A stretch of 64,000 nucleotides of DNA from Patescibacteria group bacterium (GCA_038065495.1 JBBTQW010000002.1:81321-145320); one strand, 5' to 3'. Numbered from the stretch's first letter, positions 7,227 to 63,850 are shown. Translations and numbers: made by a program. The notes: generated from the letters alone by a model not told the origin.

Positions 7227-7808
7227 CTACTCGACTTTGGGAGAACTTTTTTGGAGTTTTTTCTTAACGTCTTGCCTGATCCGTTCTTCTTCCTTATTGA
7301 CAAACTCCTCCAAAGAGAATGCCACCGGAAGCTTGTAGATGGTGATACGCGTCTCCAACAAGGGCTTGCGGACGGAAACTACATATCTTAGGCTGGACAG
7401 TTGCTGTTGCGATGCTAAACACAGCAGGGCTTGTTCGACCGTCTCTCCGCCTGTCCACTCTCTGAACCAACTTGATGGTCGGAAAAGAGAAAAGTTTACG
7501 CGCTCAAGTATGCTTGGTAATAACTTGCGGAGAATAAACCCATCTTTACCAATGCAGAAAAACTGTTGTGAACCATAAGAAGAGGGAGCGTACGCCATAT
7601 ACTCAAGATCAAAGTTAATATACCCTGTCGAGCGCAGGACATCGAGGTCTAACCGTTCTACCCTGATCTTAAGGTACTTGAGATCCTTTGGATTGATCTC
7701 CCCCAGCCATTTTCGCAAAAATGGAAACTCCGCGATGTATTCTTCGTTTGCAACTTGTAAAGGACTCTTCGACATTTGAAGCTCCTTGTGGCACCGCCAC
7801 ATTTTCAA
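7227..7808 (-). CDS. hypothetical protein (about 180-193 aa, no recognisable domain)
   Basis: Long ORF between rmuC and obg with its own downstream terminator. The start may be the internal MSKSPLQ methionine. Confidence 0.45.
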   Translation of the reverse strand: MKMWRCHKELQMSKSPLQVANEEYIAEFPFLRKWLGEINPKDLKYLKIRVERLDLDVLRSTGYINFDLEYMAYAPSSYGSQQFFCIGKDGFILRKLLPSILERVNFSLFRPSSWFREWTGGETVEQALLCLASQQQLSSLRYVVSVRKPLLETRITIYKLPVAFSLEEFVNKEEERIRQDVKKKLQKSSPKVE

Positions 7809-41948: not shown

Positions 41949-42023
41949 TGGCTCCCTGGGTAGGATTCGAACCTACGACCAATCGCTTAACAGGCGACTG
42001 CGCTACCGCTGCGCCACCAGGGA
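41949..42023 (-). tRNA. tRNA-Asn (anticodon GUU), CCA encoded
   Basis: Reverse complement folds as TCCCTGG/CCAGGGA acceptor, GCGC D-stem, GTCGC-CTGTTAA-GCGAT anticodon arm, GTAGG-TTCGAAT-CCTAC T-arm, G discriminator, CCA. Confidence 0.85.
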
Positions 42024-42042: not shown

Positions 42043-43074
42043 CTATAACACAACTCCCCCGCCCAAGCATCTCTCGCCAGCGTAGAGTACTAAAGATTGA
42101 CCAGAAGCTAGCGCGCCCGGAGAAACCAAGAAGGTGACCTTATTTTTGTTAATTTTACAATCCAAAAGTTCTCCGCGATGCCTAATCCGCGCCTGATAGA
42201 TCTCACCAGTTTCTGGTCTCGCTAACCAATTAGTATCGACTAGATTAATTATATTATTTTCTAAAACTGGTGGCTGGTCTGACACAATTAAAATATTCCG
42301 CTTCAAATCTTTCCGCACAATATAACCGTGATGACGCTCGCCGATCGTGTAGAACCACACGCCGTCGTGCTGGCCCACCACTTTCTCTTTCCCAGCAACA
42401 ATTTTCACCACTTTACCGGTTTTAGTTTTAATATATTTCTGCAGAAACTTTTTCACATCCAATTTGCCAATAAAACACAAACCCTGACTATCTTTCTTCG
42501 CAAAATTTGGTAGCTTAAACTTTTTCGCTAATTTTCTCACTTCAGTTTTCTGATAATTCCCAACCGGAAACAAGCACTTCTCTAACTGTTCGGGTTTTAA
42601 AGTCCACAAGAAATAGCTCTGATCTTTATTCTTGTCTCTACCCATCGCGAGCGAGAAAATATTTTTATTTCTAACAACTTGCGCATAATGTCCAGTCGCG
42701 ACAAAGTCCGCGCCGTTCTTGATGGCCCAATCGTAAAAAGCGCCGAATTTCACACTTCTATTACATTCAATGTCCGGATTCGGCGTGCGGCCAGCTTTAT
42801 ATTCTCGAATCATATATTTCACCACTTGCTTCTCATATTCTTCGCTCAGATCTATCGTAACAAGTGGAATATCCAAGACTGCCGCCACGCGCATGGCCTC
42901 GCGTCTATCTTCTCTCCAAGTACACTTAAAACCTTCCGGCTCCCAGACTTTGATAAACACGCCGGTCACGCTGTAACCAGCTTGCTTGAGTAGCGCCGCC
43001 GAGACCGAGCTATCCACGCCACCGGACATGCCCACAAAGACTCGTTTATTTCGCTCTCCTTTCTTATTCATCAT
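42043..43074 (-). CDS. mnmA: tRNA-specific 2-thiouridylase MnmA
   Basis: PP-loop VGMSGGVDSSVSA, NPDIECN motif and C-terminal beta-barrel. Confidence 0.85.
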   Translation of the reverse strand: MMNKKGERNKRVFVGMSGGVDSSVSAALLKQAGYSVTGVFIKVWEPEGFKCTWREDRREAMRVAAVLDIPLVTIDLSEEYEKQVVKYMIREYKAGRTPNPDIECNRSVKFGAFYDWAIKNGADFVATGHYAQVVRNKNIFSLAMGRDKNKDQSYFLWTLKPEQLEKCLFPVGNYQKTEVRKLAKKFKLPNFAKKDSQGLCFIGKLDVKKFLQKYIKTKTGKVVKIVAGKEKVVGQHDGVWFYTIGERHHGYIVRKDLKRNILIVSDQPPVLENNIINLVDTNWLARPETGEIYQARIRHRGELLDCKINKNKVTFLVSPGALASGQSLVLYAGERCLGGGVVL

Positions 43075-43091
43075 AATTAAGCTAACATATC

Positions 43092-43817
43092 TTGATGTTA
43101 ATAGTAATCAGCTTGGCGACAGCTATCTTTACTCTACTTGGTGGCTTATTCGCGCTCAAGTTCCGCGATAAACTGCACTTGATTCTCGGCTTCTCGGCCG
43201 GCGCACTCATCGGCGTGGCTTTCTTCGACTTGTTACCCGAAGCTCTCGAGCTTGGCGAGAATTATTTCTCTACTTCGCAAATCACTAGTCTAATCGCGCT
43301 GGGCTTTCTAGTTTATCTAATCTTAGACAGATTAATCTTGCCCCACAGTCATCATCACGATGAACATTGTGAGAACGAGAGTCACCGTGGCCGGTTCGCT
43401 GCCGGCTCGCTCTCCTTCCACAGCTTGCTCGACGGCATCGCGATCGGTCTCGCCTTCCAAGTTTCTAGCGCGGTTGGTTTAATCGTGACTCTCGCAGTGC
43501 TAACTCACAAGTTTCTCGACGGCATCAGCATCGTTAGTTTAATCCTGAAAGACGGCGGTGAGAAGAAGCTAGCCTTCCAGTGGCTAAGCCTCGCTTCCAT
43601 CGCGCCAGTGGTTGGCATCATCTCCACCCTGTTCTTCACTCTCCCACAATCTGCGCTCGCACTGATCCTCGCATTCTTCGCCGGCTTCTTCTTCTACATT
43701 GGTGCCAGCGACTTGCTCCCCGAGAGTCATCACGCTCACCCCACGCGCTGGACAACTCTTGCTACTATTTTGGGCCTTATCGTGATTTACACGGCGGTTA
43801 GTGTGGCTGGGGTTTAG
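43092..43817 (+). CDS. zupT: ZIP-family zinc transporter
   Basis: HSLLDGIAIG and HKFLDGISI metal-binding TM motifs and a His-rich loop (PHSHHHDEH). Confidence 0.8.
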   Translation: MMLIVISLATAIFTLLGGLFALKFRDKLHLILGFSAGALIGVAFFDLLPEALELGENYFSTSQITSLIALGFLVYLILDRLILPHSHHHDEHCENESHRGRFAAGSLSFHSLLDGIAIGLAFQVSSAVGLIVTLAVLTHKFLDGISIVSLILKDGGEKKLAFQWLSLASIAPVVGIISTLFFTLPQSALALILAFFAGFFFYIGASDLLPESHHAHPTRWTTLATILGLIVIYTAVSVAGV

Positions 43818-43848
43818 GAAATTTTGGGAAAATAAAAAAGCCACCGGA

Positions 43849-44181
43849 TTAGGGTGGCTCGACGAAAAATGCTTCCATCATCGTCGTTTTGATTCTAGAA
43901 GAGAGATCTCCTTCGATGATCTTGGGAATAACCTGACTAATCAAGTTCAAGAGAACTCGTGTATCTATCTCTGTGAACTGTTCAGCAGTCCTTCCGGACG
44001 ACTCAAGATCGACAATCTCAAGCTCTAGTTTTTCGAAAAGTTTTCGCGCCAATTTTTCCTCTTTCTTGTAAACCTTGACCTTGCAGAAGGTAAAGGCAAG
44101 AACGAAGAAAATTTCCACCGTCGGATGATTCATATTCATATTAACTCCAATCTTCAAAGACCGTGAGCGGCACGTTGCCAC
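43849..44181 (-). CDS. hypothetical protein (about 96-110 aa)
   Basis: ORF only; start uncertain (possibly MNMNHPTV). Confidence 0.3.
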   Translation of the reverse strand: MATCRSRSLKIGVNMNMNHPTVEIFFVLAFTFCKVKVYKKEEKLARKLFEKLELEIVDLESSGRTAEQFTEIDTRVLLNLISQVIPKIIEGDLSSRIKTTMMEAFFVEPP

Positions 44182-44305
44182 CTTATCTAGTGATAGACTA
44201 CAAAACTACAACACACTGTCAAGTCTTGACAAAATGTGGTGTAATCACGCCACAGGCGGACAAGTTTTCTGGCAATCCTCCTTCGCCAAGGCTACGGCGG
44301 GATAA

Positions 44306-44351
44306 ATAAAAAAAGCGCCTCGGGTTTGTAGCCCGAAGCGCTTGTGATTTT
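44306..44351. terminator. bidirectional intrinsic terminator (A-run, gcgcctcggg/cccgaagcgc hairpin, T-run)
   Basis: Lies downstream of the minus-strand dockerin-like gene. Confidence 0.55.
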
Positions 44352-44395
44352 TCGTCTAGAACCAATCACTGGGATTAGCTCAGACTAGTTTCTCC

Positions 44396-44767
44396 CTAGT
44401 TGAGTAGCAAAGAAACGAAAGTGGGAATGTCAAGTTCCGAGGCCCAGAGACCGCTGGGCGTTCCCTGACCATAAATCTTGGCAAGGACGAAAGCTTGGAC
44501 ATCCAAGCCGTCGATTGCGCCATCGCAGTTCACATCTCCGGAGAGACATTGCGTCATGGCACGGAACAAGAATTCCGAGCCGTGCCAGACAGTGAGACCG
44601 CCGCCAGTTGAGACGCCAGTTATCGGCTGGCACAACAAATGGAACGCTGGTCCAGCCGAGGTCATTGCGCCGCTGGATAGCACGGCATGACGGATCTCGA
44701 TATCGGCTTGAGCGCTGACCGGAAGCAAGCAAGCAAATACACACAAAACGAACAGAAACCTCTTCAC
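44396..44767 (-). CDS. secreted small protein with a dockerin-type Ca-binding repeat
   Basis: Signal peptide MKRFLFVLCVFACLLPVSAQA; DVNCDGAIDGLDVQAFVLAKI matches the dockerin DxNxDGxxxxxD repeat. Confidence 0.5.
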   Translation of the reverse strand: MKRFLFVLCVFACLLPVSAQADIEIRHAVLSSGAMTSAGPAFHLLCQPITGVSTGGGLTVWHGSEFLFRAMTQCLSGDVNCDGAIDGLDVQAFVLAKIYGQGTPSGLWASELDIPTFVSLLLN

Positions 44768-44825
44768 AATTTTAACCTCTTTTCTTTCTTCGTTTGTTTT
44801 GTTTCTAGTTCTTGAGCAACTCAGA

Positions 44826-45548
44826 TCACGGACCGGTTATGGTCAGACCTTTGCAAGTGAGCCATCCGCTGGAACCATCCAGAGTGACGGTCTCCTGCCC
44901 GGCAGAATCGCAGGCAAAGACTTTGCCACTCCCGGCATTATTCCTTAATCCCGCCAACAGTGTCCCATTGGCAGAAAAAACGTTAACGACACCATTGATT
45001 CCGTCGAGAAAGATCACATCAACATTCGCTCCGTTCTTGATAACCAAAGAGCCCGGAGCAGAAGTTTGACCAAGGACAAGATTATTCGGGACCGTCGCGG
45101 CATAAACCGCATAAGGTACCCAAACAAACTGGATTCTTGGCGAAACCGCATTGCCATCGACAGAGAGCTCCAGATAACGATCACTGCCACCGGCAAACGA
45201 GGCAACCTGGACGGTAAACAGTGTGTTAATCACACCGTTGGTGACAGGCACGCTGGCAATGCTGTCTGGCGTCCCAATCACCGCGCCACCCGTTGGAGCA
45301 TTATAGATCGTAAAGGTCAGATCTGCCGGACCGAGCAAAGCCTGTGTGCCATCCATAAGGAGAGCACTGTAGCTAAACTCGACATCACTCACGCTTCTCC
45401 CGCTATTGTTAACAACAACCGCGAGCTTTGGGTCCTGGACCTGAACAGAGCCAGGGCCAGCAATCGCTCTGCTCTGCAGATGGGGAAGCAAAAAAGCTCC
45501 CGCAACGACACAGGCGAACGCAAACGAACCGAAACATTTTCGAACCAT
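44826..45548 (-). CDS. secreted hypothetical protein (240 aa), GC-rich
   Basis: Signal peptide, beta-rich composition, no recognised domain. Confidence 0.45.
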   Translation of the reverse strand: MVRKCFGSFAFACVVAGAFLLPHLQSRAIAGPGSVQVQDPKLAVVVNNSGRSVSDVEFSYSALLMDGTQALLGPADLTFTIYNAPTGGAVIGTPDSIASVPVTNGVINTLFTVQVASFAGGSDRYLELSVDGNAVSPRIQFVWVPYAVYAATVPNNLVLGQTSAPGSLVIKNGANVDVIFLDGINGVVNVFSANGTLLAGLRNNAGSGKVFACDSAGQETVTLDGSSGWLTCKGLTITGP

Positions 45549-45613
45549 TTTACTTTCCTCTATCTTTCTTTTTTCCCGCTAGAAGCTTGAGCTTCTAGCT
45601 TTTAGTTTACTGT

Positions 45614-46981
45614 TTACTCACCAACCACAGCCGGCCCACCGTGGGCCCTAATGGTCAGAAGTTTGCTTGTGCTGAACGCGTTTCCTTCCGCAGCCGTGTA
45701 ATGGCCATTAACAACCACAATCAGTCCGCCACTAGCAATTCTCGTGACAGCCTCTGATAGATCAAAGTGTGGCCGGAACACGGTGCCTTCGATATTGTTC
45801 ATTGGCTGTGGGTGATTTCTATCCACCAACCGAAACTCCGCAAAAGAACCTTTCATGTAATTGGCAATATCAGCCTCAAACTGATTATTCTCAAACGAGG
45901 TTCCCTTATTGCCAGCGGGCGGATTACAGCCACCATGCGTGTGGATACCCATCACTAGGCCATTAAGTTCCAAAATGATCGGACTGCCAGAGTTGCCACC
46001 GGTAGTGTTCACTCGATACTCATGATTGATCCAAGAGGAGCTAATCGTATTCTCAGCCACATAAGGACCAGTGGCCGTTTGCCGAGTAAAATTGTCCACA
46101 CCGCTATCGCTACCAAAGCCGGTCACTCGGACAATGCCACCAGCGGCCGGTTTCTCTCGCGTTAAGCGAAAACCAATGCCGTACTTCTGCCAAGGCAGAA
46201 GACCATCACTGTTTGGCCCAATCGAGAAAATGGCATAGTCATTACCCGGCACAGCCGTCTCACCTGGGGAACGAACAATTGCACCAGTGAGATCCACTGG
46301 GAACTGGTCGGCCACTGGTGCCGGATTAATCGTTCCGTCGAGGTCGGAAGCTGGGACAGGTCCAAACTCCGCCACGCCAGAAAGATCCAAGACGCCGTTA
46401 CCGTCAGGATCAACGCAATGCCCGGCACTGAAGACAACTTCTCCCACACCCAGGCCACCACGTGAGCCAATGCCAACGGTAAAGCAAGTGCAAGGCCCAA
46501 GGCCAAGTCGCCCGATTCTGCCGTCGTTAGAAGCCACGCGATCGTCAGGGCCACACAAGCTTCTCTCTACTTGCTCCTGACCTCTTAGACCTTCCAGTAC
46601 TTCATCAACAGACACGGAGATACCTTGCTCGCCGGGCGCCACGTGGAGTTCGATCTCCACCGCATCGCCCTTAAAGAAAGCCGACGCATTGGCCCAGAGA
46701 GCAAGCGCCGTGCTGTCCAACTTCTGCTCCTCCAAAGTTTGGAGACTTCGCAGAATAATGTAGCTGCGCTTACCCAAATTTGCTTTGAGATGAACCCGCA
46801 GCCACGGAGCGCCAACAAATTGTACGGTACCCCCCGAAAAGGGTTTGGTAAATTTGTCGGTGTGATTACCGTGAACTTGTGAGTCCAGGGCAACACAGTG
46901 ATGTGTATACCTCGGTCTTGGCTCACCAAAACTTGGTGAGGCCAAAACCAGAACTAACAACAAACTACTCAGTCTCATCAA
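45614..46981 (-). CDS. secreted trypsin-like (S1 family) serine protease with an N-terminal pro-region
   Basis: Signal peptide; catalytic His (SAGHC) and Ser (TTGGNSGSPI) motifs. Confidence 0.65.
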   Translation of the reverse strand: MMRLSSLLLVLVLASPSFGEPRPRYTHHCVALDSQVHGNHTDKFTKPFSGGTVQFVGAPWLRVHLKANLGKRSYIILRSLQTLEEQKLDSTALALWANASAFFKGDAVEIELHVAPGEQGISVSVDEVLEGLRGQEQVERSLCGPDDRVASNDGRIGRLGLGPCTCFTVGIGSRGGLGVGEVVFSAGHCVDPDGNGVLDLSGVAEFGPVPASDLDGTINPAPVADQFPVDLTGAIVRSPGETAVPGNDYAIFSIGPNSDGLLPWQKYGIGFRLTREKPAAGGIVRVTGFGSDSGVDNFTRQTATGPYVAENTISSSWINHEYRVNTTGGNSGSPIILELNGLVMGIHTHGGCNPPAGNKGTSFENNQFEADIANYMKGSFAEFRLVDRNHPQPMNNIEGTVFRPHFDLSEAVTRIASGGLIVVVNGHYTAAEGNAFSTSKLLTIRAHGGPAVVGE

Positions 46982-47144
46982 TACACCTTCTTTCTTTTTC
47001 TTTTTTTCTAGTTGTTTTTTTGCTTACTTTTACTTCTCAAAACTAATTAAGAAGAATGATTGTCAATGACCTGCTCTCACACATAAATGCGAGCAAAAGA
47101 TCAAAGCCAATCTCAAATTACACCAAAAGACCTATTCCGTCAAA

Positions 47145-47696
47145 TTACGGTAGTTCTAGTAGTTTCTTGAAAATCTCGAAGGTCGTGCGCGCGTCGGCGA
47201 GGGCTGTGTGAGCTGACTGATTCTTGACGCCAAAATATTCGCTCAAAGCCCAGAGGGAGAGTTTCTGCAGTTCCGGCCGCGCGTGCAATTTACCAAAAAC
47301 CATCGAAGGCAAGTCCATCTTGTGATAAAACACTCGCGGCATGATCTTCGTCTCTGCGAAAGCATGCTCTAAGAATGACCAGTCGAAGGTCACATTCTGC
47401 GCCACCACAGTTGTATCTTGAATTTTTTCAGCCAGAGTTTTCATCGCTTGTTCGAGCGAAACAGCAAAAAGCCAATCGCCATCGTTGTAACCATTCACCC
47501 GCAAGGCTTCTGGCTCGGCTTGGTTGAGTCTAGTCGGCTTCACCTTCAGTTCTAGCTCATCGACAATCTCCCATTTTGGCCTGGCACTATCATCCAGTGG
47601 CCGGACGACTAAGCAACCTAATTCGATTATTTCATGCTTAGACGGATCCAGTCCGGTCGTTTCTAAGTCTACGAACGCTAATTTAGTTTTCTTCAT
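47145..47696 (-). CDS. DnaQ-like 3'-5' exonuclease (DEDDh family)
   Basis: Exo I FVDLETTGLDP, Exo II and Exo III HTALADA motifs. Confidence 0.8.
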   Translation of the reverse strand: MKKTKLAFVDLETTGLDPSKHEIIELGCLVVRPLDDSARPKWEIVDELELKVKPTRLNQAEPEALRVNGYNDGDWLFAVSLEQAMKTLAEKIQDTTVVAQNVTFDWSFLEHAFAETKIMPRVFYHKMDLPSMVFGKLHARPELQKLSLWALSEYFGVKNQSAHTALADARTTFEIFKKLLELP

Positions 47697-47712
47697 GTTT
47701 TTTATATTTAAT

Positions 47713-48621
47713 TTAGCGCAGGTATTTTACCTTATTTTGTTTGTGTCCAGCAAAGTCCACGGCATAGTGCGTCTCGCCTTTCCGATCGGCCAAGTAGAAC
47801 CAATAATCAGACTTGGTGGGATGGATCGTGGCCTCAATCGCTTTTAGTCCTGGCGCCACAATCGGCCGCTCTGGCAAACCGCGCTTCTGGTAAGTCACCC
47901 GCGCTACATCTACTTGCAACATCATTTTGTCGTCTAGGCGCTTCCACAAGATTCCCGCGATCAGCTGCCGCGTGGCGTAATCATGCGCTTCTTCTTCCAC
48001 AATCGCCGCCATGTTTAAGATATCTTCCCAATCTCGGCCAGACAAAAGTGACTCGCTGTGCAAGCCGGCCGTTTGCCGCAGAAAGTTTTTCCGCAGAGTT
48101 TCTACTAATTTATCCGCACTAATTTCTGATGGAAAAAAGTAAGTATCCGGAAAATTTTCCGCCGGCTTTTCGTTCAATAAAGCTAGCAGATTCTCTGGCT
48201 CTAGTTTTGTTAATTTATTAAGCAAGATTTGCGAAATTTGTTTGGGTGATGAACCTTCGGGAATCGTCACCTTCACCGGATTAAGCACAAACTGGCCACT
48301 CACTAGCCGTCTGGCAATCGTCCAGCTGTTTAGTTTACTCTCAAACCAATAATCACCCGCTTTAATGCCATCATTCCCGCCAGAAATCCTCACTAACAGA
48401 TTAAATAACAAGCCGGTTTTAATCACATTTTTCTCGGCTAAATTTTCCGTAATTTCTGCCAAACTTGCTCCGTCTGGGATTTCTATTTGTTTATTTTTGG
48501 GGAAATTACTCGGCGCTTGGATGAGCCAGACGAAAATGGCTAACAGTGCAATTAAACCAAGCAAAATCACTTGCTTGCGACGAGTGAGTTTAATTTGGCG
48601 AAGGCTAGAAAAACGACGCAT
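47713..48621 (-). CDS. mltG: endolytic murein transglycosylase MltG (YceG-like)
   Basis: N-terminal TM helix and the YceG domain with a RGLPERPI motif. Confidence 0.75.
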   Translation of the reverse strand: MRRFSSLRQIKLTRRKQVILLGLIALLAIFVWLIQAPSNFPKNKQIEIPDGASLAEITENLAEKNVIKTGLLFNLLVRISGGNDGIKAGDYWFESKLNSWTIARRLVSGQFVLNPVKVTIPEGSSPKQISQILLNKLTKLEPENLLALLNEKPAENFPDTYFFPSEISADKLVETLRKNFLRQTAGLHSESLLSGRDWEDILNMAAIVEEEAHDYATRQLIAGILWKRLDDKMMLQVDVARVTYQKRGLPERPIVAPGLKAIEATIHPTKSDYWFYLADRKGETHYAVDFAGHKQNKVKYLR

Positions 48622-49893: not shown

Positions 49894-50949
49894 CTATTTT
49901 GGATTCGAGAAGAGACCAGACTTTTTATCTTCTTTAAAGAATTTAGGATTCTTGAGGTTAACTAAGATAGTATTATCTTTGACATAACGCTCTTTCTTCA
50001 CAGCCGCCATCACTTGAGCTTTCGTCATCGCGCCATTTTTGTCGAGAATTTGCTTAATCACGTCGCGAACAATACCCGGCGTGTAGCCCCAATCGCCAAG
50101 CGCATATAATCCCCGCCCAACGAGCACGAATCTCGGATCTTTAATTAATTCATTGTGACTAGTCGCGGCATTAGTTTTGCGACCAAAGGTGGCCGTAATC
50201 TCTTTGGCGACTTCGGTAAAGTGCATTGGAGAACCCTTGCGACGCATGACGAGGAAAGCGTAATCTTTGATCCCTCTTACGCGCACATTTGGCGACTTGG
50301 CCAGGCCCCACTCGCCCACCGGACTCAAACCAATCTCTTTGGAGAGCTTGAGCCAGTTCTTGACCTTCTGCCGAGCCATCTCTGGCGAGACGCGTTTATC
50401 CAAACCACTCATAAAGTGCTCCACAATTTTATCTTCAGAAACTAATTCGTTAGTATCGAGAACTTGGCAGAGATTGCGTAGTGACTGATGCACGCCTTCG
50501 GCGAGGCTCGCATCCACCGTCCAACGATGATGGAAATAATCATCTTCTTTTAGTTTCGCAAAAGCGTCGCCGAGCACAAGCAAGAAGTGCACATTATTCT
50601 GGACCACCTGATCTTTAGAAATATGATCAAGAAACTCCTGCTCGTGCACCAGGCCGCCGTAATCTTCCATCACACCCTTGAGCTGGGCAAAGATTGACTG
50701 AGCAGCTGTATTGGCCTCAGACTTCTTGATCTGCGCAATCGTGGCATTCTCAATCTGCCGCACGCGCTCGCGGGTGATGCCATAGATCTGGCCCACCGCC
50801 TCCAGTGTCATCGTCTCTTTCGTCGCCAAGCCATAACGACGCTTAACTACGTCACGTGGCCGCGCCCCAAGGCTGGCCAAAAGCTCTTTTACCACCTCAA
50901 CTGGCTTGAAGGCCATCACCTCTTTTGTTTCTTTGCTGTTGTTATTCAT
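49894..50949 (-). CDS. sigma-70 region-4-like HTH domain protein fused to an unknown ~280-aa C-terminal domain
   Basis: TLEAVGQIYGITRERVRQIENATIAQIKK is a canonical sigma70 region 4.2 HTH; regions 2 and 3 are not detectable. Confidence 0.55.
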   Translation of the reverse strand: MNNNSKETKEVMAFKPVEVVKELLASLGARPRDVVKRRYGLATKETMTLEAVGQIYGITRERVRQIENATIAQIKKSEANTAAQSIFAQLKGVMEDYGGLVHEQEFLDHISKDQVVQNNVHFLLVLGDAFAKLKEDDYFHHRWTVDASLAEGVHQSLRNLCQVLDTNELVSEDKIVEHFMSGLDKRVSPEMARQKVKNWLKLSKEIGLSPVGEWGLAKSPNVRVRGIKDYAFLVMRRKGSPMHFTEVAKEITATFGRKTNAATSHNELIKDPRFVLVGRGLYALGDWGYTPGIVRDVIKQILDKNGAMTKAQVMAAVKKERYVKDNTILVNLKNPKFFKEDKKSGLFSNPK

Positions 50950-53900
50950 GTTTTTATATTATCATAGATTACAAAATTAAGCAAACGTCCTGGGATATAA
51001 ACTACCTTTTTTACCGTTTTATTGTCAAGCCACTTCTGCACTTTAGGGCTCTGTAGAGCCATATTCTTGGCTATTTCTTCTGTTGCTTCTTGCCCGCCAC
51101 TCAACACGATTTTGTCACGAATTATACCATTGACCTGAATCATAATATTTTGCTCACGTGTTGTAGTTTTTTCTCCAGATTCACTCAGTTCTGGCCACTT
51201 CTCTTGATGAATCGAGGTGTTATGTCCCAACTTTTGCCACAATTCTTCTGCGATGTGCGGCGCAAAGGGTGCGAGAAGCTTAAGAAAAACTTCATAATCT
51301 GTTTTACTCACGCCTTCTTTCTCAAAAGTGTTCAACAAAATCATCAAGCCAGAAATAGCCGTGTTAAATTTGAGACTTTCAATATCTGATGTTATTTTCT
51401 GCACCGAATCAGCTAAATTTTCTGCAGTTTTTTCTGACAGATTATCACTCAATTTCCAGACTCTCTCCAAGAATCTTCTTGGCCCAATTATACTTTCTGT
51501 ATTCCAAGCCACCGCTTGCTCAAATGGACCCATGAACATTTCGTACAATCTCAGCGTATCAGCGCCATAAAGTCCCACAATTTTATCGGGATTAATGATG
51601 GTCTCCGGCTTTGACTTACTCATCTTCACTCCACCTTCAGCGAGAATTAAGCCGTGACTCGTACGCTTCTGATACGGTTCAGAATTTGGCACTAATTTGA
51701 GATCAAATAAAAATTTATGCCAGAATCTAGAATAGAGCAAGTGCAGAGTCGTGTGCTCCATGCCACCGTTGTACCAATCCACGCCGCCAAGACTTGTTCC
51801 AGTTTTGCCTAGCCAATATTGCAATTTTTCTTCACTCGCAAATTCTTGAGCATTTTCTGGATCGCAGTAACGCAGATAATACCAGCTTGAACCCGCCCAG
51901 TTCGGCATCGTGTCAGTTTCTCGCCGCGCTTCGCCGCCACATTTCGGACATTTCACATTCACCCACTCACTCACGCTCGCGAGTGGCGATTCGCCGTCAT
52001 CACGGGGTTGATATTCTTTGACTTCCGGCAAAATCACTGGCAAATCACTTTCTGGCACAGGTTGCCAATCACATTTGCTGCAAAAAATCATCGGAATCGG
52101 CTCACCCCAATAGCGCTGTCGCGAAAAAATCCAATCGCGCAGTTTGTAAGTCGTTTTCGCCGTGCCAAATTTCGCGATTATTTTTTCCCGCGCCTCAACA
52201 GAATCTAAGCCGGAGAATTCGCTGGAATTTATCATTACACCTTCGCTAGCCCAAGCATGTTCGGGTTTAAAGAACCGGTCGAGCCACAGCTCGTATTCTG
52301 AACATTTGATATTTTTGTCTTTCGCCAGTTCGTCCCAAGTTAGCCAAACGACTTCATGAATCTGTTTCTCCTCTTCCGACAACTCTTGCTGTTCTTCGTT
52401 CTCTAACTCAAAAACCAGAGCGTGAAAAACCGCTTTTCGGTTCTCGTTCTTGTGATTAGCAAAGAAATGCGACTCGACTGGACCACCTAAAGTTTTCACA
52501 TACTTCACATTTTTATAGCCGGTTTCTTCGGTAATTTCTCTTTTTGCTGCTTCCACCATATCTTCGTCACCCTCGATCCCACCAGTGATAAATGTCGTCC
52601 AGGGAAATTTTTTCCACTTCAAACACAAAACTTTCTGATTTTTGGGATTAATAATTATCGCCTGAATGGCATTTCTCGCTACCGTTTTCACGCCTTCGCG
52701 CGGCGGATCGTGGGTGTCGATCATTTTGGGCGTCACCACTTCTCTAATCGGTAAATTATGTTTCTGCGCAAAAGCAAAATCCCGCTCATCATGGGCCGGC
52801 ACGCCCATCAGTGCGCCGGTGCCCACATCAGACATTACATATTCTGCTTCCCACACTGGAATCTCCTCCCCCGTGGCCGGATTAGTCACATACTGGCCAG
52901 TAAATTTATCGGTTTTGCCAGCAATGGCCAGATAAGTCGCGCCGAAAATCGTTTCTGGCCGAGTGGTGAAGACTTTGATCACCCCACCCGCACCCTCCCC
53001 CAAGGGGAGGGCTAAGTTTATTTGCTCCAAAACTTTTTTAATGTTATTTAAAACCTCTTCGTTGCTGAAACGAATAAGTTTATAGCCGAGTTGTGCCAAA
53101 TATTTTGTTCTTTCTTCGTCAGATTCCTTTTGATAATCATGAACATCCCCGTCAACTTCTACTACCAACATTTTTTCTAGACAAACAAAATCAACAATAA
53201 ATTTTCCAATAATATGTTGGCGGCGAAAGTGGCAACCTAGTTTATTGTCTCTTAATTCTTGCCACAATTTCTCTTCAGCTTCAGTAGGATTCTGACGCAT
53301 ACCCACCGCTTTTTCTTGTAAAGCGCGGTAGGCGACTGGATCAGCAGTTTGATAGCCAAATTCGCCCCACCCATTCCCTCCCCCAAGGGGAGGGTTCTTT
53401 CTCTCTTCCCCCTCTCCTTTGGGGAGGGGGTCGGGGGTGGGGCTGAATGGAAACTCAATCTCCGCTCCCTCACTTCTCCCAATCCAATTTCTCTGCTGGA
53501 TTTTGATTTTTTCTAAATAGTCTACCGTGTCCAGATCTTTATCCAATCTGTCCGCATACTTCGTAATCGCCAGCATCCATTGCTCTTTCTCTCGTTGTTC
53601 CACTTCCGTACCACAACGCTCACACTTACCATCAACCACTTCTTCATTCGCCAAACCAATTTTATCTTTCGGACACCAGTTAATTAGCGTTTTCTTCTTA
53701 TACGCCAAGCCGTGCTGATAGAACTGCAGAAAGAGCCATTGCGTCCATTTGTAATATTCCGGATCAGTGGTGTTGATCTCGCGTGACCAATCAAATGAGA
53801 AGCCAAGCGCTTTGAGCTGTTTACGAAAGTTATCCGTATTTTCTTGCGTCACCAGTGCCGGCGCTTTGCCCGTTTTGATTGCGTAATTCTCTGTTGGTAG

Positions 53901-54161
53901 ACCGAAAGCGTCCCAGCCCATCGGATAGAGCACGTTCTGACCCATCATCCTCCGCTTTCTCGCCAAGATATCCAGCGCCGTATAACTCCGGATGTGACCG
54001 ACATGCAAGCCATCACCAGACGGAAACGGAAACTCCACCAAACAATAAAACTTATTTTTTTCTCCCGCTTCGCTTTTTTCTTGCGCAGAATAAATACCAG
54101 ACTTCTCCCATTCCGTCTGCCATTTCTGCTCTATTTGATTGTGATCGTAAGCTTCAGCCAC
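50946..54161 (-). CDS. leuS: leucyl-tRNA synthetase carrying an in-frame DUF559 endonuclease-fold insertion (1071 aa)
   Basis: HIGH-type motif (HVGHIRSY), CP1 editing motif TTRPETIFGATY, KMSKS and the anticodon-binding domain are all present. About 160 extra residues lie between NWIGRSEGAEIEF and VFTTRPET. Confidence 0.9.
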   Translation of the reverse strand: MAEAYDHNQIEQKWQTEWEKSGIYSAQEKSEAGEKNKFYCLVEFPFPSGDGLHVGHIRSYTALDILARKRRMMGQNVLYPMGWDAFGLPTENYAIKTGKAPALVTQENTDNFRKQLKALGFSFDWSREINTTDPEYYKWTQWLFLQFYQHGLAYKKKTLINWCPKDKIGLANEEVVDGKCERCGTEVEQREKEQWMLAITKYADRLDKDLDTVDYLEKIKIQQRNWIGRSEGAEIEFPFSPTPDPLPKGEGEERKNPPLGGGNGWGEFGYQTADPVAYRALQEKAVGMRQNPTEAEEKLWQELRDNKLGCHFRRQHIIGKFIVDFVCLEKMLVVEVDGDVHDYQKESDEERTKYLAQLGYKLIRFSNEEVLNNIKKVLEQINLALPLGEGAGGVIKVFTTRPETIFGATYLAIAGKTDKFTGQYVTNPATGEEIPVWEAEYVMSDVGTGALMGVPAHDERDFAFAQKHNLPIREVVTPKMIDTHDPPREGVKTVARNAIQAIIINPKNQKVLCLKWKKFPWTTFITGGIEGDEDMVEAAKREITEETGYKNVKYVKTLGGPVESHFFANHKNENRKAVFHALVFELENEEQQELSEEEKQIHEVVWLTWDELAKDKNIKCSEYELWLDRFFKPEHAWASEGVMINSSEFSGLDSVEAREKIIAKFGTAKTTYKLRDWIFSRQRYWGEPIPMIFCSKCDWQPVPESDLPVILPEVKEYQPRDDGESPLASVSEWVNVKCPKCGGEARRETDTMPNWAGSSWYYLRYCDPENAQEFASEEKLQYWLGKTGTSLGGVDWYNGGMEHTTLHLLYSRFWHKFLFDLKLVPNSEPYQKRTSHGLILAEGGVKMSKSKPETIINPDKIVGLYGADTLRLYEMFMGPFEQAVAWNTESIIGPRRFLERVWKLSDNLSEKTAENLADSVQKITSDIESLKFNTAISGLMILLNTFEKEGVSKTDYEVFLKLLAPFAPHIAEELWQKLGHNTSIHQEKWPELSESGEKTTTREQNIMIQVNGIIRDKIVLSGGQEATEEIAKNMALQSPKVQKWLDNKTVKKVVYIPGRLLNFVIYDNIKT
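52993..53011. repeat. 19-bp near-palindrome ccctcccccaaggggaggg (copy 1), flanking the DUF559 insertion
   Basis: Identical 19-mer at 53376..53394; both copies preceded by ccccaccc. On the coding strand it encodes PLP(K/L)GEG. Confidence 0.8.
53376..53394. repeat. 19-bp near-palindrome ccctcccccaaggggaggg (copy 2)
   Basis: Direct copy of 52993..53011. Because the unit is near-palindromic, the pair also acts as terminal inverted repeats. Confidence 0.8.
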
Positions 54162-57080: not shown

Positions 57081-57794
57081 TTAACAGAAAGATCTGCGCC
57101 GGCGAGGAAACAGAGGGAGTGAACCCAATCCGGCGATTGCCAGCGTCGCTGGTTCCGGCACCGGGCGATAGTCATAAGTGACTTTCGCGGTCAGGTTGAG
57201 AACCGGGTTCTCCACCTCTAGTTGCCACGAATCGGGCACATACGGCCCGAAGTTCGCCGTCTGGAAGATCACGTCCGGCGTGAACATGAAGTCCGCTGTG
57301 CCTGCGCCCAGATACGCCGCAAGCGGCTGAGCAGGATGTGAGACGGTCAATGTGGCATACGAGACGGTGCCAAAGTTGTGACCGTCTGGGCCAGAACTCT
57401 GGAAAACATCGTTATTACCACCATCGCCGTCATCCGGAGTAAGTGGGACCGAGGCTGTGTTCACAATCTTGGTATCGCCACTCGCGAGGCCGGCCGGGCC
57501 AGTCACTGACCACGAGCGAATCAGCTGACCTTGGACAAACAACTGCTGACCATGGTCAAACGGATCGTCGTTATCGGCCTGCAGATCCACCGAGCCATCA
57601 TGGCAAAACTCCACCAGCACACCGACCAGCTCGCGCGTGCCACCCATGTCGTCGAACTTGGGGACACTCACCACCACGCTCGGCTGGAGCGCACTCTCGA
57701 ACGAGTTCGATCCACTCACCATGTACGAATCCGCGCGCGCCGCGCTGGCCGTGAGCAACACGGCGACCATCCCCACCAAACTGGGAACTTTCAT
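57081..57794 (-). CDS. secreted protein with a C-terminal PEP-CTERM sorting signal
   Basis: Signal peptide MKVPSLVGMVAVLLTASAARA; C-terminus PVPEPATLAIAGLGSLPLFPRRRR (PEP motif, TM helix, Arg cluster). AAGGAG RBS before the internal ATG. GC-rich. Confidence 0.6.
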   Translation of the reverse strand: MKVPSLVGMVAVLLTASAARADSYMVSGSNSFESALQPSVVVSVPKFDDMGGTRELVGVLVEFCHDGSVDLQADNDDPFDHGQQLFVQGQLIRSWSVTGPAGLASGDTKIVNTASVPLTPDDGDGGNNDVFQSSGPDGHNFGTVSYATLTVSHPAQPLAAYLGAGTADFMFTPDVIFQTANFGPYVPDSWQLEVENPVLNLTAKVTYDYRPVPEPATLAIAGLGSLPLFPRRRRSFC

Positions 57795-57910
57795 ACTCAA
57801 ACTCCTTCTTGTCGAAGAACAATTTAGCCGCAAACCCTGCAGCCTTGGGAAGTTAGACGAAAATCTAACCAACTTATACCCTAGCAGATTTGCAAAAACT
57901 TGTCAAATAT

Positions 57911-58273: not shown

Positions 58274-60013
58274 CTACTTCACCTCTTTCTCGATATCTTC
58301 GATTTCTTTTTTGATATATTTCTCAGCGGTCCGAAGATTCTTGCGGACACGAGTGAGGATGCGCGCTTCTTCGCGAGTCAAGTCGCGCTTCGTTTTAGCT
58401 TTCTCTAGCAAGCTTAACTGCTTCTCCAGATCTTCGCGCAGGAGATCAAAGGCTTGGCCGATTGACTCTTCTGCCTCATGCACTTCGGCTCGCACCTTGC
58501 GCCGCAGGCGATGTAAAGCGCGCTGGCTGTGCTCGAGCAAGAGCGCGAGTAAGACGAATAGCGCCACAAAAGGAATCGCGACCGAGAGAGCGGAAACAGC
58601 TTTATTGCCCAAGCGCCACCAGGCCGGCGGGCGCACGTTCAGCTCAATCGCCGTGCTGGGCAAACTACTCGCGCCGTCATCGCGTAGCACTCGGGCGGTA
58701 ATCGTATAATTGCCGGCCGGCAGTTTCTCTGGCGAAACAAAAGTAAAGCTGCCGAGGTTATCGCTCTTGATGCTGGCAATTTCGGCTGGATTAGCCCCTT
58801 CTTGCACGCTCACAAGCAAGCCGGTATCGGGATAAGTTTGACCTTTGGCCACCAAATTCTGCCCGGCGAGTAGATCGGTTGGGTAATCCGTCCAAGTTGG
58901 CGAGAGTAGCGGTAGAACCGTGACAGAAATCGAAGAGAGTAATGCATTACCAGCGCGATCGAAAGCGCGCGCGGTAATAGTGTGTGTGCCCGGTGGCAAG
59001 GCTGGCGTGCGATAAACTTCACCACGACCGCCACGCCAAACAGGCAGAGTCTCACTACCCGAACGTAATTCGTAATAATCTAAGCCAGAAGTACTATCGC
59101 TCGCGCTTAAGAGTAATTTAACTTTTGGATCCGTGTCGTCGTCCCGGGCGCTCTCGCGAATAAAGAAATTAGTCGGCTTAGTCGTGTCTATTTGCAGGCG
59201 ATAATGACTCGTCTCACTCCACTCGCCGTTACCCAATTTAGCTTGAACGTGGAAATACCACCTGCCGTCACCCAGATCATCCAAAATTTTCTCGCTCACG
59301 GCTGGCTCATAGAGCACGCTCGCCTCGCCACGCGCTGTTTTATTGACCGCTAGGCGCACCGCACTCGCGCCACTTGGCAAATCCCAGCTCAACTTGGCCG
59401 TGCTGGCACGATACCATTTGTCTTGATCTGGATGCGTGCTGGAAGTAATATTTAAACTATTCTGATCATCTTCAGTTTCAGAAATATCCGGAATTATCGG
59501 CTTGGCGATAGTTGGCTCTGTCGCCGCACCGCCAAGTTGCAAGCTGGCACTACCGGCGCTAGTCAAGATATTACTGCCTTGGCCGTCATTGGCGAGCACG
59601 GCTGGTGTGACAAAACTTAATTTGGCCGAGCCCGCACGCTTGGCTCGGAAGTTGATACTCAAAACTCGGCCAGAATTACCGGTAAAACCGGGATTAAGCG
59701 CCACGCCTTCGAAATTTATTGTTCCCGCAGAATTAGAAAAGCTCGGCTCTTGCACCCACAGGCCGACGACCGAGCCGCCCTTGGAGAGCGAAGTGACTTG
59801 CAAGAGATCAGCGGGGAAAGTGACAACGCCAGAAACAGCGTTCATGGCTTGGTCAGGTGTGGAAACGATTATTGTAACAGCAAAATTCTGACCAGCTGAG
59901 AAATTTCCAGTATTTGGACTAAGACTAAGTGACGCCGCGTGCGCAAAACTTGGCGCTAAAAAAAGAACTGAAGCAAAAAAGATTAAAAATATTTTTGAAA
60001 TAGAAAAATGCAT
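58274..60013 (-). CDS. cell-surface protein: signal peptide, cohesin-like N-terminal domain, Ig-like repeats, C-terminal TM anchor and a coiled-coil cytoplasmic tail
   Basis: SLSLSPNTGNFSAGQNFAVTIIVSTPDQAMNAVSGVVTFPADLLQVTSLS...LWVQEPSFSNSAGTINFEGV resembles the cohesin domains of CPR-type surface proteins; TM segment AIPFVALFVLLALLL near the C-terminus. Confidence 0.5.
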   Translation of the reverse strand: MHFSISKIFLIFFASVLFLAPSFAHAASLSLSPNTGNFSAGQNFAVTIIVSTPDQAMNAVSGVVTFPADLLQVTSLSKGGSVVGLWVQEPSFSNSAGTINFEGVALNPGFTGNSGRVLSINFRAKRAGSAKLSFVTPAVLANDGQGSNILTSAGSASLQLGGAATEPTIAKPIIPDISETEDDQNSLNITSSTHPDQDKWYRASTAKLSWDLPSGASAVRLAVNKTARGEASVLYEPAVSEKILDDLGDGRWYFHVQAKLGNGEWSETSHYRLQIDTTKPTNFFIRESARDDDTDPKVKLLLSASDSTSGLDYYELRSGSETLPVWRGGRGEVYRTPALPPGTHTITARAFDRAGNALLSSISVTVLPLLSPTWTDYPTDLLAGQNLVAKGQTYPDTGLLVSVQEGANPAEIASIKSDNLGSFTFVSPEKLPAGNYTITARVLRDDGASSLPSTAIELNVRPPAWWRLGNKAVSALSVAIPFVALFVLLALLLEHSQRALHRLRRKVRAEVHEAEESIGQAFDLLREDLEKQLSLLEKAKTKRDLTREEARILTRVRKNLRTAEKYIKKEIEDIEKEVK

Positions 60014-61345: not shown

Positions 61346-63850
61346 TTAAATAGTTTCTGGGACAACAATTTCTTCTGCTTGTTCAGAATTTTCTGGATTT
61401 TCTGACTTTAGTTCTGGTGCTGGTTCTGGTTTAGTAATAACTTCCGGTTCTGGTTCTGGTTCTGGTTCAGATTTAACTTCCGGCGTCACACTGGCAGGAG
61501 TGACTGACTGATTTAGTTTATCAAAATCTTCGGCCTTCAAACATTTTTCCGTGCCATCTGCTCGTTGCAAACACAGCTCTCTAGTGTGAACTTTCTCAAA
61601 ATAACCAACAACTGCCGTTACTCGCGCGCTGACAAAGTCAGTCACGGGCTTTAAACCTGTTTTAACTTTTTCCAGAATATATTCGCGCGCGTTTCGAGGA
61701 CTTTCCGTACTCACCTCATCCAAATTTAGTGTGAGTCCGCGGCTCTCCAGTGTCTCACCCCAACGCGCTTCTTGCTCTTGCACGGCGCGTACCACCAGCG
61801 CCAAGATCGCCCGGTCATCAATACCGCTAATCTGGCCCTCACCATCATGTGTCGCCAAGTGGTCATCAACTTCGGCAGTATCTTCCGCAATAAAACCGTA
61901 ACGCGTCCGACCGTCGCCCTCGTTGTAGACGAAAGAGACCGGCTCCAGACCGGCTAGAGTTTCTAAACCAGCCACTTCTAGCTCGGCGATATCATGCTTT
62001 GTCGCGCGGGTGGAAGACAAGCAAGCATCAGAGGCGCTGTTATACACAACTTGCTTACTAGAGCTCAAGCACAGCGAGCCAGCGCCAGTAGAGCCAGTGA
62101 GACCGTCGAAGCCGACTGTGCCAGTAACCGAGAGCGTGCGCCACGGCGAGGTGGTGGCCACGCCCAAGTTGCTGCCCACTTGGATATTGCCAGTGAGCGT
62201 AATCGCCGGATTGATCAATTTATCCAACTGACAAGCTGAGCAAGAAACCGTGCCAGTGCCATCAATGCTGTAAGTAGTAGTGGAAGCAGTGGTAATGCCA
62301 TTGAGCGAGAGGCCATTACCAGTGATGGTGATGGGAGCAATAGTACTATCGGGAATTAATTGTGCGCCAGAAACGTATGTGGTGCCACCACCAGTGTGAT
62401 AAAGCGGATAAGTACCACGCATCACACCACCTAAGACCTTCAGATCATCGCCGCCACTACCATTGCTAATACCGTGAGGATAAAGAGCTACTTCCAGCGT
62501 AACCCTAGCCGGAGTACCACCACAACCAGGCATATCAAGGGCGCCTTCGGCATTGGCGTCAAAAACTCTAGCTTTGACATAAAGGTTGCCGCAAGCAACC
62601 TCAATACCACTACCAGTGCCACCGCCTTCGCCACCCATAATAGTATCGGCATATAGATTAACATTGCCATCCGTCACAACGGCGTCATACTCTATGGAAG
62701 AAATATCGCGAGTCACGTGAGCAGTAAATTGCGCACCAGAACCAACCACAATCGCACTGGCATTAGGCGAACCGGCAGAGATTGAGCGAATGCGCTCGGC
62801 TGAGACTGTGACGGAGCTGGCGGCATTGGTGATAGAAAAAGGGGCGTGATCATTACTTCCAGCATTGCCCGCATAAATAAACTGACCGTGGCCACCAATA
62901 GTAGAAGTTGCGGCCCCGTTAGTGCCATTTGCACCATCATCAAAGATCGCCGCGCCAGAACCGGTAAAATAGACTACAGCGCCAGGCTCAAAGTAATAAT
63001 TAACGCCAGTCTTGAGCAGATTACTAGTGTCATAAAAACCCGGGCCAACATAAATAGTGCTGGATGCAGTAGCGTCTTGTTTTGCCTTCTGCAACATCGC
63101 ACCGCGCGCGGCGTTGGTGTCGGAAGAAATATAAGTTTTAGTACTAGTCGGTGTTTGTAGAACAATCGAGCCGGCCAGCGTAGTGGTGGCGGTAAAAGTG
63201 TTGACGCCAGAATAAGAATTGGTGGAAGTGGTACTAACATAGTCTAACCCGGCCGTGGCTACGCTCACGAGGCCAGTGGTGGACTTGAGCAAACCAGAGA
63301 AAGAATTGATGGAAACATTGCCGGTAAGGTTGAGCCCGCCGGAGCCGGCTTGCAAGTTGAGTGCGGTGGCGCCAGTGGTATTGCCAAGCGTGATTGTCTT
63401 GGCGCTGGAGCCGGTGCCAAAGTTTAGAGCACTAGCCGCAGCCGAATCAACCGTCAAAGCACCGCTACCAGTAATCGTCCCGCCGTTGACGCTAATATTA
63501 TTGGCAAAAGTGGTGGAGCCATCGTCGCCAAAGGTGACAAAAGCCGTGCCATTATCTTTGATAATAAAGTCGCCCTGGCCTGCGAGATTAAAAATCAAAT
63601 TAGAATCCGTGGCAGTGTCGGCGAGGGTGAAGGTGAGATCACGATTATCAGTGGTAACAATCGCATTGCCACTGGTGGCGTTATAAACTGCCTGCAAGGT
63701 CGAGCTGGCCACCGTACAGTTGGCAGTGGTTGGCGCACATTCGGGATCCAGCGTCTCGCCCGGGTCATAGGGTTGACCATCCCAAGCGGCAAACACCACT
63801 GAAGTGAGCAATAAACTAGTAACGATGACAGCGATGCCTATTTTCTTCAT
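61346..63850 (-). CDS. secreted beta-helical fibre/adhesin-like protein with an internal peptidase-S74 intramolecular-chaperone auto-processing domain and an acidic EP-repeat tail
   Basis: Signal peptide; long G/T/S/N-rich beta-solenoid-like region; ...TKHDIAELEVAGLETLAGLEPVSFVYNEGDGRTRYGFIAEDTAEVDDHL...ISGIDDRAILALVVRAVQEQ matches the S74/endosialidase-chaperone consensus (LKxNIxxL..LxPVxYxxK...GFIAQEVxxVxPE...VxYxxLxxLLIEAIKEL). Confidence 0.55.
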   Translation of the reverse strand: MKKIGIAVIVTSLLLTSVVFAAWDGQPYDPGETLDPECAPTTANCTVASSTLQAVYNATSGNAIVTTDNRDLTFTLADTATDSNLIFNLAGQGDFIIKDNGTAFVTFGDDGSTTFANNISVNGGTITGSGALTVDSAAASALNFGTGSSAKTITLGNTTGATALNLQAGSGGLNLTGNVSINSFSGLLKSTTGLVSVATAGLDYVSTTSTNSYSGVNTFTATTTLAGSIVLQTPTSTKTYISSDTNAARGAMLQKAKQDATASSTIYVGPGFYDTSNLLKTGVNYYFEPGAVVYFTGSGAAIFDDGANGTNGAATSTIGGHGQFIYAGNAGSNDHAPFSITNAASSVTVSAERIRSISAGSPNASAIVVGSGAQFTAHVTRDISSIEYDAVVTDGNVNLYADTIMGGEGGGTGSGIEVACGNLYVKARVFDANAEGALDMPGCGGTPARVTLEVALYPHGISNGSGGDDLKVLGGVMRGTYPLYHTGGGTTYVSGAQLIPDSTIAPITITGNGLSLNGITTASTTTYSIDGTGTVSCSACQLDKLINPAITLTGNIQVGSNLGVATTSPWRTLSVTGTVGFDGLTGSTGAGSLCLSSSKQVVYNSASDACLSSTRATKHDIAELEVAGLETLAGLEPVSFVYNEGDGRTRYGFIAEDTAEVDDHLATHDGEGQISGIDDRAILALVVRAVQEQEARWGETLESRGLTLNLDEVSTESPRNAREYILEKVKTGLKPVTDFVSARVTAVVGYFEKVHTRELCLQRADGTEKCLKAEDFDKLNQSVTPASVTPEVKSEPEPEPEPEVITKPEPAPELKSENPENSEQAEEIVVPETI

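Follow-up and report, generated by a model that had tools for sequence, protein, structure and literature searches.

We analysed a 64,000-nucleotide (nt) stretch of DNA from a Patescibacteria group bacterium (GCA_038065495.1, JBBTQW010000002.1:81321-145320), the whole of which is called the window here, and in which an islet of three minus-strand genes for secreted proteins sits between the convergent stop codons of zupT and of a gene for a DnaQ-like exonuclease (dnaQ). The host is a Patescibacteria metagenome-assembled genome from Hainich groundwater, and the contig names trace it to two wells, H41 and H51, at the Hainich groundwater observatory (for the groundwater context, see PMC8672522). 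Over 7.9-13.4 kb around the islet, the window is 100% identical to four fetched contigs of separate assemblies, so the arrangement is not an assembly artefact; the same protease is present on six contigs on record. The three proteins are filed at NCBI as MEK7650571-573 on a 443-kb contig, the first two under locus tags AAB364_01720 and _01725.

Three secreted-protein genes between zupT and dnaQ

The islet and its flanking genes are arranged as follows (aa, amino acids; ORF, open reading frame):

43092-43817, plus strand: zupT (Pfam Zip, E 1.6e-25)
44396-44767, minus strand: small secreted protein, 123 aa, with one dockerin-type calcium-binding loop (ORF, MEK7650571.1)
44826-45548, minus strand: shortened fibre/adhesin-like secreted protein, 240 aa (ORF and homology)
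45614-46981, minus strand: secreted S1B-type serine protease, 455 aa (ORF, Pfam, AlphaFold2 model, homologs)
47145-47696, minus strand: DEDD-type/RNase_T exonuclease, DnaQ-like (E 1.9e-24)

The original prediction, made from the sequence alone, had placed three consecutive secreted-protein genes between zupT and the exonuclease gene and taken them for a horizontally acquired module. The ORFs are present at the positions given, and all three products carry predicted signal peptides, read from the sequence as a hydrophobic core that follows a basic n-region and precedes an AxA-type cleavage motif, with putative cleavage sites VSAQA↓D, AIA↓G and SFG↓E. NCBIfam and PHROGs hold no family for the ORFs of the interval or for a full-length fibre relative, and Rfam gave no match above threshold in 43000-48000.

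The protease gene starts with TTG (455 aa); an ATG one codon further in yields 454 aa, and a 454-aa form is on record. NCBI lists a shorter form of 387 aa, MEK7650573.1, although alignments with homologs extend over 95-100% of the long ORF; neither this form nor the long ORF had a match in exact look-ups. The predicted parts of the protein are:

46925-46981, minus strand: putative signal peptide, aa 1-19
46589-46909, minus strand: beta-sandwich N-domain, aa 25-131 (AlphaFold2 model)
45842-46564, minus strand: trypsin-fold catalytic domain, about aa 140-380, with H188, D248 and S331
45617-45835, minus strand: C-terminal domain of ~75 aa, aa 383-455

Its trypsin fold, anticipated by the original prediction, is borne out by three kinds of evidence. 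PF00089 (Trypsin) scores 24.4 bits against a cut-off of 20.6, and PF13365 (Trypsin_2) falls just under its own (27.2 versus 27.6). The residues H188 (AGHC), D248 (NDYAIF) and S331 (GNSGSP) are invariant in a 23-sequence homolog alignment. The AlphaFold2 model (predicted local distance difference test score, pLDDT, 85.6; predicted template modelling score, pTM, 0.86) retrieves V8, Esp and Spl proteases as its top Foldseek matches (E 5.7e-9, TM score 0.72 on the target), and the staphylococcal V8, Esp and Spl enzymes are also the best profile matches (E about 1e-6). According to sequence and model, the product is an S1 peptidase of the chymotrypsin fold, S1B-like and with predicted activity. It shares the trypsin fold and the His-Asp-Ser order with the staphylococcal glutamyl endopeptidases and Spl proteases (V8/SspA, Esp, SplA-E; MEROPS S1B), but is only 15-19% identical to them, has an extra 110-aa beta-sandwich N-domain as well as the 75-aa C-terminal domain, and is genetically tied to a fibre gene. 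The N-terminal segment that had been taken for a pro-region does exist, but it is a well-folded, conserved beta-sandwich in the model (aa 25-131, pLDDT 87-98).

The middle gene encodes a putative signal peptide (about aa 1-30), a conserved beta-sandwich N-domain (about aa 57-150, nt 45099-45380) and then about 90 aa of 'xTLDGxxG'-type repeats. The NCBI call, MEK7650572.1, has 176 aa, and homology begins upstream of its start codon. While a word-indexed homolog search with the 240-aa protein found only the protein itself, a full HMMER search recovered its relatives: 2120 representative proteins of varied length begin with the N-domain, and some of them (P0247, P0260) have Peptidase_S74, a tail-fibre chaperone domain, at the C-terminus. 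The window protein is 38-42% identical over its N-terminal part to the fibres of two loci discussed below, L001 and L002 (E 1e-18), and 32% identical to P0384 (E 1e-15). By homology, the middle gene is a member of a tail-fibre/adhesin-like family, and the cassette would therefore be a surface-structure cassette.

Full-length relatives close with a conserved domain of ~150 aa, from ITGGxDLxExF to LVLVxLQ, which always forms the extreme C-terminus. Its predicted model resembles, at fold level, the D4 domain of phi29 gp12, the pre-neck appendage or tailspike (PDB 3gqh). The comparison has clear bounds, as the fibres of the islet family are chromosomal, signal-peptide-bearing bacterial proteins and not virion parts, their N-terminal and stalk parts are unrelated to gp12, and they have a separate neighbouring protease, whereas gp12 reportedly cleaves itself. 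According to the preprint 10.1101/216911, D4 is a tandem beta-tulip 'autochaperone' that trimers require in order to assemble, and the authors who discovered it reportedly pointed out homologs among bacterial adhesins. The window's own protein has no D4-like tandem beta-tulip domain at all. It ends in CKGLTITGP, aligned with CKVLQITGGADL of the relatives, so that a single residue separates the conserved ITG of the domain boundary from the stop codon, and its length is 240 aa against about 540-665 aa.

Two further systems offer partial parallels. Peptidase_S74 tail-fibre/endosialidase proteins have the same architecture of N-domain, stalk and removable C-terminal assembly domain, as seen in P0247 and P0260, but the islet protein and its close relatives have no S74 domain. 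The mosaic adhesive trimer fibres of Bdellovibrio (Bd1334, Bd2133; PDB 8oml, 8on4, 8ond) are likewise chromosomal, modular, fibre-like surface proteins; here the stalk motif 'GNVGIGTxAPxAKLDVNG' of the relative P0384, not of the window protein, matches weakly (E about 0.02), while tip and base domains differ, and this marginal match serves as a lead only. The genome also encodes a second tail-fibre-like protein (61346-63850, minus strand, 834 aa, Peptidase_S74 at aa 615-662), located in the other GC-rich part of the window beside a Big_13 Ig-like protein (58274-60013) and a family-less ORF with a GC fraction of 0.576 (57081-57872). A kinship of this protein with the islet fibre was considered and rejected, since no relation between them is detectable.

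In the small protein, the loop DVNCDGAIDGLD (aa 78-89, nt 44501-44536) fits D-x-N-x-D-G-x-I-D-x-x-D. The dockerin-type calcium-binding repeat of the original prediction is thus present as a canonical 12-residue loop, though as a single repeat that stays below the Pfam threshold for Dockerin_1 (13.9 bits versus 22.9, E 0.063; 15 residues aligned to one repeat); homologs of the protein score 14.6-19.6 bits. The likeness to type I dockerin of clostridial cellulosomes consists of one 12-residue calcium loop plus helix with the F-hand pattern (DVNCDGAIDGLDVQAF). Instead of the two tandem 22-residue F-hand repeats of type I dockerin, the protein has only one loop, and its remaining ~55 aa form a family-specific N-region. 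Several cysteines conserved in the other small proteins are missing from the window's. No cohesin match was found among the 18 window proteins scanned.

Alleles at the zupT/dnaQ junction

Relatives were found via zupT homologs and via one fibre homolog, and five of them are informative for the junction (identities are to the window):

L090: zupT 73%, dnaQ 85%; junction empty, stop codons adjacent; then YceG, DUF8128, sigma factor and LeuRS as in the window
L087: zupT 98%, flanking DNA 94%; cassette with full-length fibre
L088: zupT 87%; cassette with full-length fibre
L100: zupT 83%; cassette with full-length fibre
L095: dnaQ 94%; cassette with full-length fibre

The original prediction had proposed to look for relatives that lack the segment, and L090 is such a relative: its zupT stop abuts its dnaQ stop. 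On the right-hand side the boundary is sharp, as homology to both L090 and L095 stops at window position 47143/47144. Two loci of more distant zupT relatives, L096 and L098, were dropped as junction evidence because they are not syntenic, the exonuclease by zupT in L096 being unrelated; a metagenome scan with MnmA yielded one close but truncated locus.

The flanks of L087 match the window at 94% in DNA and 96-98% in protein. The small proteins of L087, L088 and L100 are mutually 84-90% identical, roughly as their zupT genes predict, whereas the window's small protein is only 43-46% identical to these three (46% to L087). In DNA, 94% similarity to L087 extends as far as 43838, and the match resumes only in a 123-nt block (44309-44431) that spans the terminator and the 12 final codons of the small gene. 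At 98%, this block is above the 94% of the housekeeping flanks, and the DNA on either side of it is unalignable; the block was likely a crossover anchor. A small protein of 46% identity next to a 98% zupT and a 98% junction block implies recombinational allele replacement, not divergence in place.

The protease itself is exchangeable. In L095 and L088 a signal-peptide-bearing Peptidase_M10 metalloprotease (E 1.9e-24) stands upstream of the fibre gene in place of the S1 enzyme; the last 75 residues of this metalloprotease align with the C-terminal domain of the S1 family (profile positions 387-460, E 5e-8). The protease ends of L088 and L095 are 99% identical while their fibres are 38-40% identical, which makes the locus a mosaic. 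The M10 gene of L095 contains a 100-N scaffold gap (7497-7596) with ~50 nt duplicated on both sides, and this gap led gene callers to split the gene and to predict a spurious 210-aa ORF on the opposite strand.

Conserved presence with vertical phylogeny, which the original prediction had named as evidence against import, is found in part: the locus is occupied in four of the five relatives, and in three of them the small gene tracks zupT. The cassette is accordingly old in the clade, and only the window allele is clearly non-vertical. For the idea of horizontal acquisition, the empty junction of L090, the clustering of homologs in high-GC genomes, the mismatch of 46% against 98% and the M10/S1 swap all count in its favour, whereas the argument from composition is weak. 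A recombination hot spot with exchangeable alleles describes the locus better than a single recent insertion does.

That argument had been that the islet DNA is clearly richer in GC than its surroundings. The islet is indeed about 5 points higher (0.52 versus 0.47), but its three genes, at 0.526-0.546, lie only 1.2-1.6 standard deviations above the 57 other ORFs of the window (0.472 ± 0.045), zupT itself reaches 0.519, and the islet is only the second GC-richest 2.6 kb, 56.5-59.7 kb being richer. GC at third codon positions (GC3) is at the host mean in the two large islet genes (z 0.08 and 0.27), and the codon usage of the protease is host-like. The excess resides in codon positions 1 and 2 (GC at second positions, GC2, z 1.7-2.2), because the islet proteins are rich in Gly (12% versus 7%) and poor in Lys (2% versus 7%) and in Glu. 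The offset thus stems from amino-acid content, and with GC3 and protease codon usage host-like, we rejected composition as evidence of recent import. Cassette genes of L087, L088, L095 and L100 likewise exceed their flanks by 6 to 10 GC points, mostly in codon positions 1 and 2.

Protease-fibre linkage and a putative surface cassette

The protease belongs to a family with hundreds of ~470-aa relatives at 36-49% identity, at least 566 of them in species-representative genomes. Among the best 80 of these at least 566 relatives there are no Patescibacteria; many are from Planctomycetota. The taxonomic affinity of the cassette homologs, which the original prediction had suggested checking, lies with high-GC, Planctomycetota-like genomes. 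In three such loci (L001, L002, L004) a protease gene is followed by genes for a fibre of ~665 aa and a small protein of ~128 aa, collinear with the window, and the window's 123-aa protein is 36-38% identical to these ~128-aa proteins (E 1e-22 to 1e-25). In a neighbour-joining tree the window protease is sister to exactly the L001/L002/L004 group, on a long branch. These genomes have a GC of 0.60-0.61, and there the cassette equals its surroundings in GC. The small proteins of L002 and L004 have lipobox-like signal peptides (LAAC, LISC), as read from their sequences. Two observations on L001, the high-GC locus with the closest S1 protease, stand beside these: its fibre is 68% identical to that of the Patescibacterium L088, and it comes from the same Logan sample (SRR15507657) as L100, so that possible exchange partners co-occur.

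To quantify the coupling between protease and fibre, we compared 83 fetched loci, in which 45 proteases have the ~75-aa C-terminal domain and 38 do not. A gene of the D4 type occurs in the same locus in 34 of the 45 cases with the domain and in 1 of the 38 without (Fisher p 1.4e-12); 25 of the 34 partners lie within 200 nt on the same strand, and several of the 11 loci without such a gene are on contigs that break off on the relevant side. Together with the M10 proteases that carry the same domain beside D4-type fibres, this linkage indicates that the non-catalytic domain, and not the catalytic type, defines the partnership. Our literature searches found no description of a cross-phylum protease-fibre pairing, of an S1/M10 swap on a shared domain or of an autochaperone-less allele; every domain of the islet has a known fold, and it is the pairing, the swap and the autochaperone-less allele that are without description in the literature searched.

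Taking these observations together, we consider it probable that the interval is one allele of a variable surface-protein cassette carried between the zupT and dnaQ stops in a clade of groundwater Patescibacteria, that its three genes form one operon encoding an S1B protease, a shortened fibre/adhesin-like protein and a small calcium-loop protein in this order, and that the window allele arrived by recombinational replacement. The full-length middle protein would be a trimeric surface fibre with a C-terminal D4-like autochaperone. The neighbouring protease would be its dedicated partner, recognised or docked via the shared ~75-aa C-terminal domain whatever the catalytic type, and would most likely mature the fibre, by trimming or clearing the autochaperone or in some other way. 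The small protein may use its calcium loop to tether or bridge the assembly. In the window allele, the fibre appears to be cut to the N-domain and short repeats, ending at the autochaperone boundary, with protease and small protein intact. Its product may be a short, already 'matured' surface protein that does not need an autochaperone, or else part of a partly decayed module.

A broader proposal is distinctly more tentative. The cassette may represent an undescribed two-component system that spans phyla, in which S1 or M10 proteases sharing the ~75-aa domain partner D4-type trimeric fibres and replace or complement self-cleavage; in episymbiotic Patescibacteria the locus could act as a swap hot spot for host attachment, and the window would hold a natural autochaperone-less version.

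Several points weigh against the cassette reading and its mechanism. The relation between protease and fibre is suggested by gene linkage alone, and since the domain by which the pairing is defined is absent from the window fibre, the mechanism may not hold for the window allele. A separate protease is not obviously needed if gp12, as Xiang et al. reportedly found in 2009, cleaves itself, D4 then being removed. The likeness to D4 is one of fold, seen in the predicted model of a relative, and sequence and profile searches of the PDB missed gp12. The interval contains no integrase or other mobility gene, no att-like or meaningful direct repeats flank it and no tRNA gene adjoins it (the nearest, at 41949-42023, is one gene away). 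In comparison with the 57 other window ORFs, composition shows no sign of recent import. Finally, synteny does not settle gain versus loss, as L090 and L095 are about equally distant on the dnaQ-side genes; the taxonomic distribution of homologs favours gain over loss relative to L090.

The best-surviving alternative is the function put forward by the original prediction, a secreted-effector or nutrient-scavenging unit. In such a unit the protease would digest external or host-cell proteins to feed an auxotrophic episymbiont, and the other two products would be accessory or substrate-binding. The protease is intact, predicted to be secreted and V8-like within S1B, a class that includes broad digestive and virulence proteases, and since the window fibre lacks the protease-linked domain, the enzyme may act on other targets. 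Against this, its subfamily is tied to fibre genes across phyla, a tie that follows the C-terminal domain even when the enzyme is swapped for an M10 protease, and the homology of the middle gene is to a tail-fibre/adhesin-like family. We therefore regard the effector role as unlikely, and as less likely than a surface-fibre cassette. The accompanying suggestion that the protease could process the co-encoded proteins gains from the conserved gene linkage across phyla and loses from the absence, in the window's middle gene, of the domain that is most tightly linked.

Less probable again is a decaying remnant that lost its function after fibre truncation and whose three ORFs are drifting. The shortening of the fibre from about 540-665 to 240 aa with loss of the autochaperone would fit such decay, as would the position of the window protease on the longest branch of its clade, a small protein that is the most divergent of its family, and the loss of several cysteines conserved in its counterparts. 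Yet none of the three ORFs is disrupted, and each has a putative signal peptide and a Shine-Dalgarno-like leader. The protease retains its catalytic triad and every family-invariant residue, the small protein has a canonical calcium loop, and the fibre stops exactly at a domain boundary and not at a random place; nor can drift in place produce 46% protein identity beside DNA flanks that are 94% identical.

Vertical inheritance of an ancestral Patescibacteria locus, lost in L090 and never laterally transferred, has only a small chance of being correct. It would explain a site filled in four of five relatives, a small gene that tracks zupT among L087, L088 and L100, and host-like GC3 and codon usage, the more so as L090 is not a clear outgroup. 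It does not accommodate a window allele that is 46% identical where the flanks reach 96-98%, S1 and M10 proteases that alternate at the same locus, protease ends 99% identical in L088 and L095 next to fibres at 38-40%, or closest S1 relatives that belong to other phyla.

A prophage or phage-derived tail-fibre fragment, suggested by the domains that the fibre family shares with phage tail fibres and spikes (Peptidase_S74 in relatives, the gp12-D4-like C-domain), is very improbable and was rejected, as none of the four interval ORFs matches a PHROGs family, the islet is flanked by neither phage genes nor an integrase nor att repeats, and the same gene pair occurs in ordinary chromosomal contexts in dozens of genomes.

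If the cassette reading holds, it bears on how these bacteria meet their partners. Patescibacteria spend their lives attached to other cells, by means of surface structures of which little is known. Partner specificity could plausibly be determined by an exchangeable fibre-plus-protease cassette of which near-identical genomes have sharply different versions, and the islet is a clean case of a replaced allele in a streamlined genome. The protease-fibre pairing gives a testable hypothesis for the maturation of non-phage fibres, and the shared C-terminal domain of the proteases provides a handle for finding such systems.

Terminators, leaders and the orphan ORF

The remaining elements of the interval are the following:

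46982-47144, minus strand: AT-rich leader from the dnaQ stop to the protease start, GC 0.32, right-hand boundary of the islet
45549-45613, minus strand: spacer between protease and fibre genes, containing a hairpin with a 9-bp stem (45578-45599, core AAGCTTGAGCTT) and a purine-rich leader that includes a Shine-Dalgarno-like site
44343-44313, minus strand: predicted intrinsic terminator of the three-gene unit, 12-bp stem with 8 GC pairs, T-run, folding z = -3.0
44203-44245, minus strand: 43-nt element with the palindrome TGTCAAGTCTTGACA, which contains TTGACA; found once in the window, between the islet terminator and the orphan ORF and just upstream of the latter
43849-44181 (110 aa, GTG start) or 43849-44139 (96 aa, ATG start, as called by others), minus strand: orphan ORF, GC 0.43, not secreted

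The terminator had been predicted to be bidirectional; it is strong on the minus strand, and with a weaker T-run on the plus strand, bidirectional action is only plausible. The supposed AT-rich promoter region at 46982-47144 is AT-rich as described, but a consensus scan found no sigma-70-like promoter in it. All three islet gene leaders share a purine-rich coding-strand motif ending near CTAGAAA (44784-44813, 45558-45574 and 46987-47016).

Two of these elements recur in L095. A palindrome similar to AAGCTTGAGCTT lies between its M10 protease and fibre genes, and the 43-nt element with TGTCAAGTCTTGACA is present at 6575-6617 with 95% identity, directly after the dnaQ stop and upstream of the M10 protease gene. 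This element may be a promoter or operator that marks a recombination joint.

The orphan ORF lies inside the interval outlined by the original prediction, which passed over it, and is not part of the secreted trio. It has a Shine-Dalgarno-like site and its own minus-strand terminator (43860-43838), and no family match in Pfam, NCBIfam or PHROGs. The corresponding segment differs in each relative, holding a 61-aa ORF in L087, a 68-aa ORF in L100, and a NUDIX gene plus a 163-aa ORF in L088.

Beyond dnaQ, the LeuRS gene of the window (50946-54161, minus strand) encodes 1071 aa against 752 aa in L090, with extra segments at about aa 238-386 and 479-633. Precomputed Pfam matches inside it to DUF559/MTES_1575 (endonuclease-like) and NUDIX suggest inserted domains or an insertion of the homing-endonuclease type.

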